DNA from: Escherichia coli | GTDB lineage: Bacteria; Pseudomonadota; Gammaproteobacteria; Enterobacterales; Enterobacteriaceae | DNA length: 64,000 nucleotides | Strand: one strand, 5' to 3' | NCBI RefSeq assembly: GCF_009931435.1 | Contig: NZ_CP043414.1 | In this document: positions 11,160 to 11,897 of the stretch, piece by piece | Layout: each line of letters begins with the position of its first letter | How positions within the stretch are numbered: position 1 is the stretch's first letter | The notes under the pieces: generated by a model | Seen by the model: the letters and a program-made list of their open reading frames with translations, nothing else | What the model was told of the DNA's origin: nothing | The model's database searches: none | Translations under genes and position numbers: made by a program

Positions 11160-11897
11160 ATGTCACAGTCTACATCCGTGCTTCGTCGTAATGGATTTAC
11201 TTTTAAACAGTTTTTTGTTGCTCACGATCGCTGTGCAATGAAAGTGGGAACGGATGGCATTTTGCTGGGCGCATGGGCACCGGTGGCTGGGGTAAAACGT
11301 TGCCTTGATATCGGCGCGGGTAGCGGGTTGCTGGCATTAATGCTGGCGCAGCGAACCGATGACAGCGTGATGATTGATGCCGTTGAACTGGAAAGTGAAG
11401 CTGCGACTCAGGCGCAGGAAAATATCAACCAGTCCCCGTGGGCAGAGCGGATTAATGTCTATCCGGCGGATATTCAGCAGTGGATCACACAGCAGACAGC
11501 ACGCTTTGATTTAATCATCAGTAACCCGCCTTATTATCAGCAGGGCGTTGAGTGCGCTACGCCGCAGAGGGAACAGGCACGCTATACCACTACGCTTGAT
11601 CATCAATCGTTGCTAACCTGCGCGGCGGAGTGCATTACTGAAGAGGGATTTTTTTGCGTGGTGTTGCCAGAGCAGATTGGTAATGGTTTTACTGAACTGG
11701 CATTAAGAATGGGCTGGCATTTACGTTTGCGGACGGATGTGGCGGAAAACGAAACGCGACAGCCGCATCGGGTGCTGCTGGCATTCTCCCCACAGGCGGG
11801 AGAATGCTATAGCGATCGCTTAGTGATTCGTGGGCCAGACCAGAGCTATTCCGAAGCGTACACTGCGCTGACCCAGGCTTTTTATTTGTTTATGTAA
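11160..11897 (+). CDS. trmN6: tRNA (adenine37-N6)-methyltransferase
   Basis: ORF track 285 aa; start at ATG 11160 ([13 protein letters not shown], 245 aa); SAM-binding [13 protein letters not shown] and NPPY motif. Confidence 0.85.

Follow-up and report, generated by a model that had tools for sequence, protein, structure and literature searches.

At convergent gene pairs such as ynaJ-uspE, the SEnd-seq work of Ju et al. (2019) reportedly revealed overlapping bidirectional terminators. The transcripts of convergent E. coli operons commonly run into each other: among the 370 convergent operon pairs analysed, 3′ transcript ends overlap at 276, by 286 nt on average (PMC4161252). Bidirectional termination driven by colliding polymerases is one proposal for convergent pairs (bioRxiv 10.1101/2022.10.23.513370), and Rho is known to suppress read-through and antisense transcription (PMC7815308). 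[quoted passage not shown]

The window analysed here, a stretch of 64,000 nt labelled E. coli, contains the first three of these pairs. Their geometry is identical to that of the class of Lillo and Krakauer: the 16-nt (trmN/nadB) and 4-nt (tadA/mltF) cases are in the phase that sets the third codon positions of both genes against one another, and another phase described by the same authors applies to the 9-nt hcaT/csiE overlap (PMC2174442). There is no difference in kind from that class, and only the history of each pair is added to it. As at pairs with bidirectional terminators, the transcripts overlap at their 3′ ends with no canonical intrinsic terminator, and a stem-loop lies near the csiE end. 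However, bidirectional terminators were described between genes and as Rho-independent, whereas at these loci the transcripts end within coding sequence, and for tadA/mltF the published data point to Rho (PMC7815308). The loci also resemble the known Rho suppression of read-through and antisense transcription (PMC7815308), in that both strands of mltF have a Rho region towards its 3′ end and stretches richer in C than in G lie downstream of most of the six stop codons, but the direct evidence concerns one of the three pairs (tadA/mltF). As for the ExcludonFinder catalogue (PMC12288877), what it records for these pairs is transcript overlap, not demonstrated regulation.

The overlaps and the class to which they belong are therefore already known, from the reference annotation, the 2007 analysis and the 2025 catalogue of transcript overlaps. 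Our only additions are small, namely three contrasting evolutionary histories and a codon-level reason for the frozen state of one of the overlaps.

Three tail-to-tail gene overlaps in the window

The genes and their shared nucleotides are as follows.

11160..11897, + strand: trmN (yfiC) coding sequence, 245 aa, C-terminus ...FYLFM followed by the stop
11882..13504, - strand: nadB coding sequence, 540 aa, C-terminus ...LYINK followed by the stop
11882..11897: trmN/nadB overlap, 16 nt, TTATTTGTTTATGTAA; the third codon positions of both genes face each other
26187..26690, + strand: tadA coding sequence, 167 aa as annotated (longest open reading frame from 26154)
26687..28243, - strand: mltF coding sequence, 518 aa
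26687..26690: tadA/mltF overlap, 4 nt, TTAA, i.e. two stop codons in one palindromic tetramer
56218..57357, + strand: hcaT coding sequence, 379 aa, MFS transporter
57349..58629, - strand: csiE coding sequence, 426 aa as annotated in K-12 (longest open reading frame to 58650)
57349..57357: hcaT/csiE overlap, 9 nt, TCAGCATGA

The initial annotation had reported overlaps of 16, 4 and 9 nt at these positions, and both the listing of open reading frames and the raw sequence bore this out exactly. Overlaps of identical length are present in the RefSeq annotation of K-12 MG1655 (nadB 2710420-2712042 / yfiC 2712027-2712764; csiE ..2666715 / hcaT 2666707..; mltF ..2697357 / tadA 2697354..), and the PGAP annotation of the closest genome, that of strain 2020CK-00188 (98.9% identical to the window), agrees on all three. 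In each pair two real protein-coding genes lie on opposite strands, share their 3′ nucleotides and keep their frames intact to the stop codon, and the tetramer of tadA/mltF is one of the canonical shared-stop tetramers. These are three genuine tail-to-tail overlaps, and we conclude that they are very probably of an ordinary kind, with no dedicated regulatory device.

The window is collinear, in reversed orientation, with K-12 MG1655 at about 2,660,064-2,723,923, the identity between the two around the junctions being 92-98%, and with most E. coli genomes it shares 90-95% identity. Amino acid identity to the TrmN of the window (11160-11897) stays at or below 95% for all species representatives in the genome collection, and the window probably belongs to a divergent Escherichia lineage labelled E. 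coli. Strain 2020CK-00188 carries between yfhH and yfhL an extra phage-like island of ~12.5 kb (L096:27280-39405) with an integrase, a DNA polymerase, a helicase and tail fibre fragments; this island is absent from K-12 and from the window, where the equivalent site lies at about 24000-25000.

The K-12 equivalent of the window contains 10 convergent junctions between coding sequences, three of which overlap. Taking as denominator for the 58 genome-wide overlaps (PMC2174442) either the 370 convergent operon pairs (PMC4161252) or a rough guess of ~600 junctions, our own binomial estimate gives p of about 0.05-0.2, that is, a mild local excess that is unremarkable. The whole region is tightly packed. 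In K-12 coordinates a fourth convergent overlap, yfiM/kgtP (4 nt, 2724448-2724451), lies a few hundred bases before window position 1, the window start itself falling within pssA, and genes on the same strand overlap as well, by 4 nt between start and stop codons in the K-12 equivalents of rseD/rpoE, rnc/era, rseB/rseC, hcaE/hcaF and hcaC/hcaB, and by 11 nt in glrR/qseG.

Frozen, drifting and labile overlaps

Conservation of the overlaps among orthologues, which the initial annotation had proposed to inspect, was found for trmN/nadB; for csiE/hcaT the presence of an overlap is conserved but its length drifts by genus, and the tadA/mltF overlap proved labile.

TrmN was scanned using one genome per species, which gave 80 loci in Enterobacteriaceae, with nadB adjoining trmN in 79. 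Of these 79 species, 76 have an overlap of exactly 16 nt. In the exceptions, a 1-nt deletion in the NadB tail leaves 8 nt in one Escherichia genome (L008), a shortened NadB tail leaves 12 nt in another locus (L039), and in a contig of Escherichia sp. ESNIH1 (L034, 3720-3760) a 14-nt tandem duplication (two copies of TCTCTTTATGTAGT) located exactly at the junction reduces the overlap to 8 nt. In the last case each gene retains its own conserved end, and the locus is a natural example of a duplication that has partly resolved an overlap. At a further locus (L028) nadB has moved elsewhere, and its last codons persist as antisense of trmN.

The tails of the two proteins differ in conservation. The TrmN C-terminus reads FYLFM followed by the stop in 75 of 76 Enterobacteriaceae species, and the FYL motif is retained in relatives down to about 43% identity; the NadB tail varies across species according to the pattern [HY][IM][NK][RKM] before the stop. 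Among 77 sequences, nine of the 16 overlap positions are invariant, and the changes at the other seven are all synonymous in TrmN. Read on the opposite strand, the last base of the TrmN Phe codon together with the TA of the Tyr codon (YTA) gives TAR, the stop codon of NadB (TAA or TAG). The codon variation thus suggests that the end point of NadB is fixed because TrmN keeps its conserved Phe-Tyr. That is, as long as TrmN keeps ...F-Y-L-F-M, NadB would have to stop at this point and the overlap would stay at 16 nt, and the last NadB residues would merely track the synonymous codon choices of TrmN. The overlap would then be frozen across the bacterial family because the Phe-Tyr codons fix the NadB stop.

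More distant relatives, with TrmN proteins 50-54% identical, show no trmN/nadB overlap (four loci). One of them (L093, TrmN 51% identical) has kept the gene order srmB-trmN-nadB-rpoE but has a 70-nt spacer in which a 9-bp G+C hairpin is present; the NadB of this relative (...PTILHP and stop) terminates some 7 residues sooner. In another (L092) an extra gene is inserted between trmN and nadB, and the two others are without nadB at the trmN locus. Judging from these comparisons, the trmN/nadB overlap looks like a loss of the spacer near the base of the Enterobacteriaceae, after which it appears to have been frozen.

For csiE/hcaT, a 379-aa hcaT orthologue faces csiE in every genus sampled and the pair always overlaps. 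The overlap is 9 nt in Escherichia; Citrobacter koseri and Salmonella share one of 6 nt (TCATGA), and another Enterobacteriaceae lineage (loci L086/L087) has one of 4 nt (TTAA), so that the two ends would seem to drift among these three lengths. The tadA/mltF overlap is 4 nt in Escherichia and Enterobacter kobei (TTAA) and in Pseudescherichia vulneris (CTAA), and the C-terminal tails of both TadA and MltF are non-homologous between those genera. There is no overlap in Salmonella enterica: the two genes are separated by a 50-nt spacer (L088:3053-3102) in which a REP-like palindrome (GCCGGATAAG...CGCCATCCG) folds at -16 to -22 kcal/mol, depending on the strand. Such lability is what is expected of a minimal shared-stop overlap, which is easily formed and dissolved (PMC2174442); with both tails apparently unconstrained, the tetramer may come and go.

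These overlaps would have arisen when a spacer or a stop codon was lost and one reading frame came to extend by a few codons into the end of the neighbouring gene; loss of the spacer is the origin that we favour. We hold with good confidence, as part of the explanation as a whole, that how long an overlap then persists is set by coding constraint.

Transcript ends and Rho at the K-12 loci

The 3′-end and Rho data used here refer to K-12, and K-12 positions were converted to window coordinates through the collinear alignment. Term-seq of K-12 placed a 3′ end at 2666762(+), classified as 'primary (csiE), antisense (hcaT)' (Adams et al. 2021, PMC7815308 Supplementary file 1), i.e. 47 nt past the csiE stop codon and inside hcaT. 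Rho termination regions were reported at 2697105(+) and 2697064(-), with Rho scores of 3.2 and 9.6 (PMC7815308 Supplementary file 2). The equivalents in the window are the following.

57302, - strand: csiE 3′ end, where an imperfect inverted repeat (57303-57320) has its foot
about 26939, - strand: Rho region K-12 2697105(+), internal to mltF
about 26980, + strand: Rho region K-12 2697064(-), in mltF antisense RNA produced by tadA read-through, about 290 nt after tadA ends

The supplements of PMC7815308 contain no 3′ end or Rho entry for nadB/yfiC and list no Rho region for csiE/hcaT, and these genes are absent from the TERMITe supplements. C-rich, G-poor stretches of 80 nt (C/G ratio 1.8-2.9) occur 80-320 nt downstream of the stop on five of the six read-through RNAs. 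They point to Rho in a suggestive manner only, given that the antisense of coding sequence is often C-rich anyway.

It had been argued from the sequence that the mRNA 3′ ends of each pair would overlap in antisense. This is supported for the orthologous K-12 loci, where the csiE 3′ end lies in hcaT, mltF contains Rho regions on both strands towards its 3′ end, and the excludon catalogue includes all three pairs (PMC12288877). The transcriptional interference that the initial annotation had also put forward found no support in the published data consulted. As an intergenic terminator would not fit, each transcript would read on beyond its stop codon as RNA antisense to the partner gene, and this read-through RNA would be untranslated. 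Rho would mainly be what ends this RNA, possibly helped by polymerase collisions, and the terminated RNA may then be trimmed by exonucleases back to a hairpin. Both mRNA 3′ ends would be complementary because the transcripts run into each other's antisense. Extending the evidence from tadA/mltF, Rho may be the general terminator at all six ends, and termination at nadB and trmN could likewise depend on it.

Are the pairs regulatory excludons?

On the published K-12 data, the transcripts of the three pairs overlap with complementary 3′ ends, which is one of the properties of a convergent excludon. A regulatory effect is conceivable because all three pairs are listed as such (PMC12288877): owing to complementary mRNA 3′ ends or to polymerases meeting head-on, expression of one partner would lower that of the other, by RNase III cleavage or by transcriptional interference, and the overlap would be kept for that purpose. 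In addition to the listing, the csiE transcript that reaches into hcaT, the family-wide conservation of the trmN/nadB overlap and the termination by polymerase collision proposed for convergent pairs are in keeping with this idea. However, any expressed pair with overlapping coding sequences automatically satisfies a definition based on transcript boundaries. In the region studied here, the catalogue contains only the four pairs whose coding sequences overlap (PMC12288877, compared with the K-12 annotation). Moreover, because overlapping 3′ ends are usual at convergent operons regardless, an overlap of coding sequences implies nothing special at the RNA level. We know of no evident functional link between the paired genes.

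The conservation data also weigh against regulation. Coding constraint accounts for the constancy of the 16-nt overlap, no covariation supports an RNA element (see below), and the tadA/mltF overlap is missing in Salmonella, with non-homologous tails elsewhere. For double-stranded RNA captured with p19, among the matches listed in the supplements of PMC7373196, none concerns nadB, yfiC, tadA, mltF or hcaT, and the csiE clusters lie in the 5′ half of that gene and not at the junction. Taken together, we consider a functional role of the pairs as convergent excludons unlikely, and infer that the overlaps have no regulatory role.

Hairpins embedded in the partner genes

The initial annotation had also stated that neither gene of a pair can have a conventional terminator unless it lies inside the coding sequence of the partner. 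The geometry is correct, and no terminator made up of a hairpin and a U tract was found within 500 nt of any junction. A consensus scan for intrinsic terminators over the same distance gave counts equal to the shuffle expectation, none of the hits being convincing. Local folding downstream of all six stop codons yielded stable hairpins, none of them then followed by a U tract, so that the G+C-rich hairpin with a U tract just past the stop that characterizes intrinsic or bidirectional intrinsic terminators is absent from these sites. The main structures near the junctions, besides the repeat at the csiE 3′ end, are two.

11783..11809: perfect 10-bp inverted repeat, GCATTCTCCC-N7-GGGAGAATGC, inside trmN, where it encodes AFSPQAGEC
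26699..26742, + strand: hairpin directly after the tadA stop, in the coding sequence of the mltF tail, no U tract

The trmN repeat lies 73-99 nt downstream of the nadB stop codon on the nadB strand, and its folding energy (-21.6 / -25.2 kcal/mol) places it in the top 0.3% or so of 45-nt windows. The hairpin after tadA reaches -18 kcal/mol (top 1.7%, approximately), and csiE also harbours stable hairpins past the end of hcaT, again without a U tract. Of all 45-nt windows, the one at 57136-57180 on the - strand gives the most stable fold (-27.9 kcal/mol). It falls within hcaT and, followed along the csiE strand, comes about 170-210 nt after the csiE stop; it was rejected as a terminator, as it has no U tract and the z-score of its 91-nt context is only -2.4.

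It could be supposed that each gene has a working structure-based terminator or 3′-end stabiliser embedded in the coding sequence of its partner. The 10-bp trmN repeat would be the candidate for nadB, and the structures that follow tadA and border the mapped end of csiE would be the others. By folding energy, the trmN repeat and the hairpins do belong to the top 0.3-1.7% of the window, the csiE 3′ end was mapped exactly to the foot of its imperfect inverted repeat, and a rho-independent terminator has been predicted for one of the genes in 19 of the 58 convergent overlaps of E. coli (PMC2174442). However, no candidate is followed by a U tract, and the trmN hairpin is without covariation. Furthermore, tadA read-through passes its hairpin and continues to the Rho region about 290 nt downstream, and a 3′ end at the foot of a hairpin is what is expected from exonuclease trimming of Rho-terminated RNA (PMC7815308). 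Embedded terminators of this kind are accordingly very unlikely, more so than an excludon function.

An Rfam scan of the whole window revealed no family at any of the junctions. Away from them, matches were obtained at 16087-16918 (-), 19702-19916 (+), 32723-32870 (+), 62397-62506 (+), 23448-23524 (-) and 9578-9620 (+), corresponding to AsrC, rncO, GlmY, the iscRS stability element, OhsC and ES036/CssrF, respectively. AsrC is an antisense RNA of rseC, and ES036/CssrF sits in the gap of the convergent srmB/yfiE pair.

Is the 16-nt overlap itself selected?

Beside coding constraint, the conservation of the 16-nt overlap throughout the family could reflect selection on the overlap itself. In the most specific form of this idea, RNA complementarity or head-on polymerases would couple NAD biosynthesis (nadB) inversely to tRNA m6A37 methylation (trmN), with the 10-bp repeat in trmN serving as an element of the nadB 3′ end. 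We regard this form as highly improbable. Over 80 species the arms of the repeat are paired at 79.3%, compared with a shuffle mean of 79.3%, and the covariation score is 0.178 versus 0.182; the compensatory base pairs that would identify a conserved structured RNA element are thus not seen in the trmN repeat. Since the pairing equals that of shuffled columns, the repeat therefore follows from conserved amino acids. As a candidate 3′-end hairpin for nadB, it is unsupported, having neither a U tract nor covariation.

Lastly, an annotation artefact, in which one stop codon or frame of each pair was mis-called and there is no true overlap, a possibility that the initial annotation had raised against itself, can be discarded with near certainty: even though the MltF and TadA tails are poorly conserved and the NadB tail is altered by a 1-nt deletion in one Escherichia genome, the known frame fixes the stop codon, full-length orthologues are conserved to the last residue and confirm the frames through to the C-terminus, and two independent annotations concur.

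Meaning of the overlaps

Ordinary convergent overlaps of protein-coding genes carry little weight as a discovery, and their practical value is modest: when trmN, nadB, tadA, mltF, csiE or hcaT is deleted or recoded, the bases shared with the partner must be spared. The trmN/nadB pair is a textbook case in which a conserved C-terminal Phe-Tyr (TTY TAY) hard-wires a stop codon on the opposite strand. Together, the three pairs illustrate how convergent overlaps can be frozen, drifting or labile.
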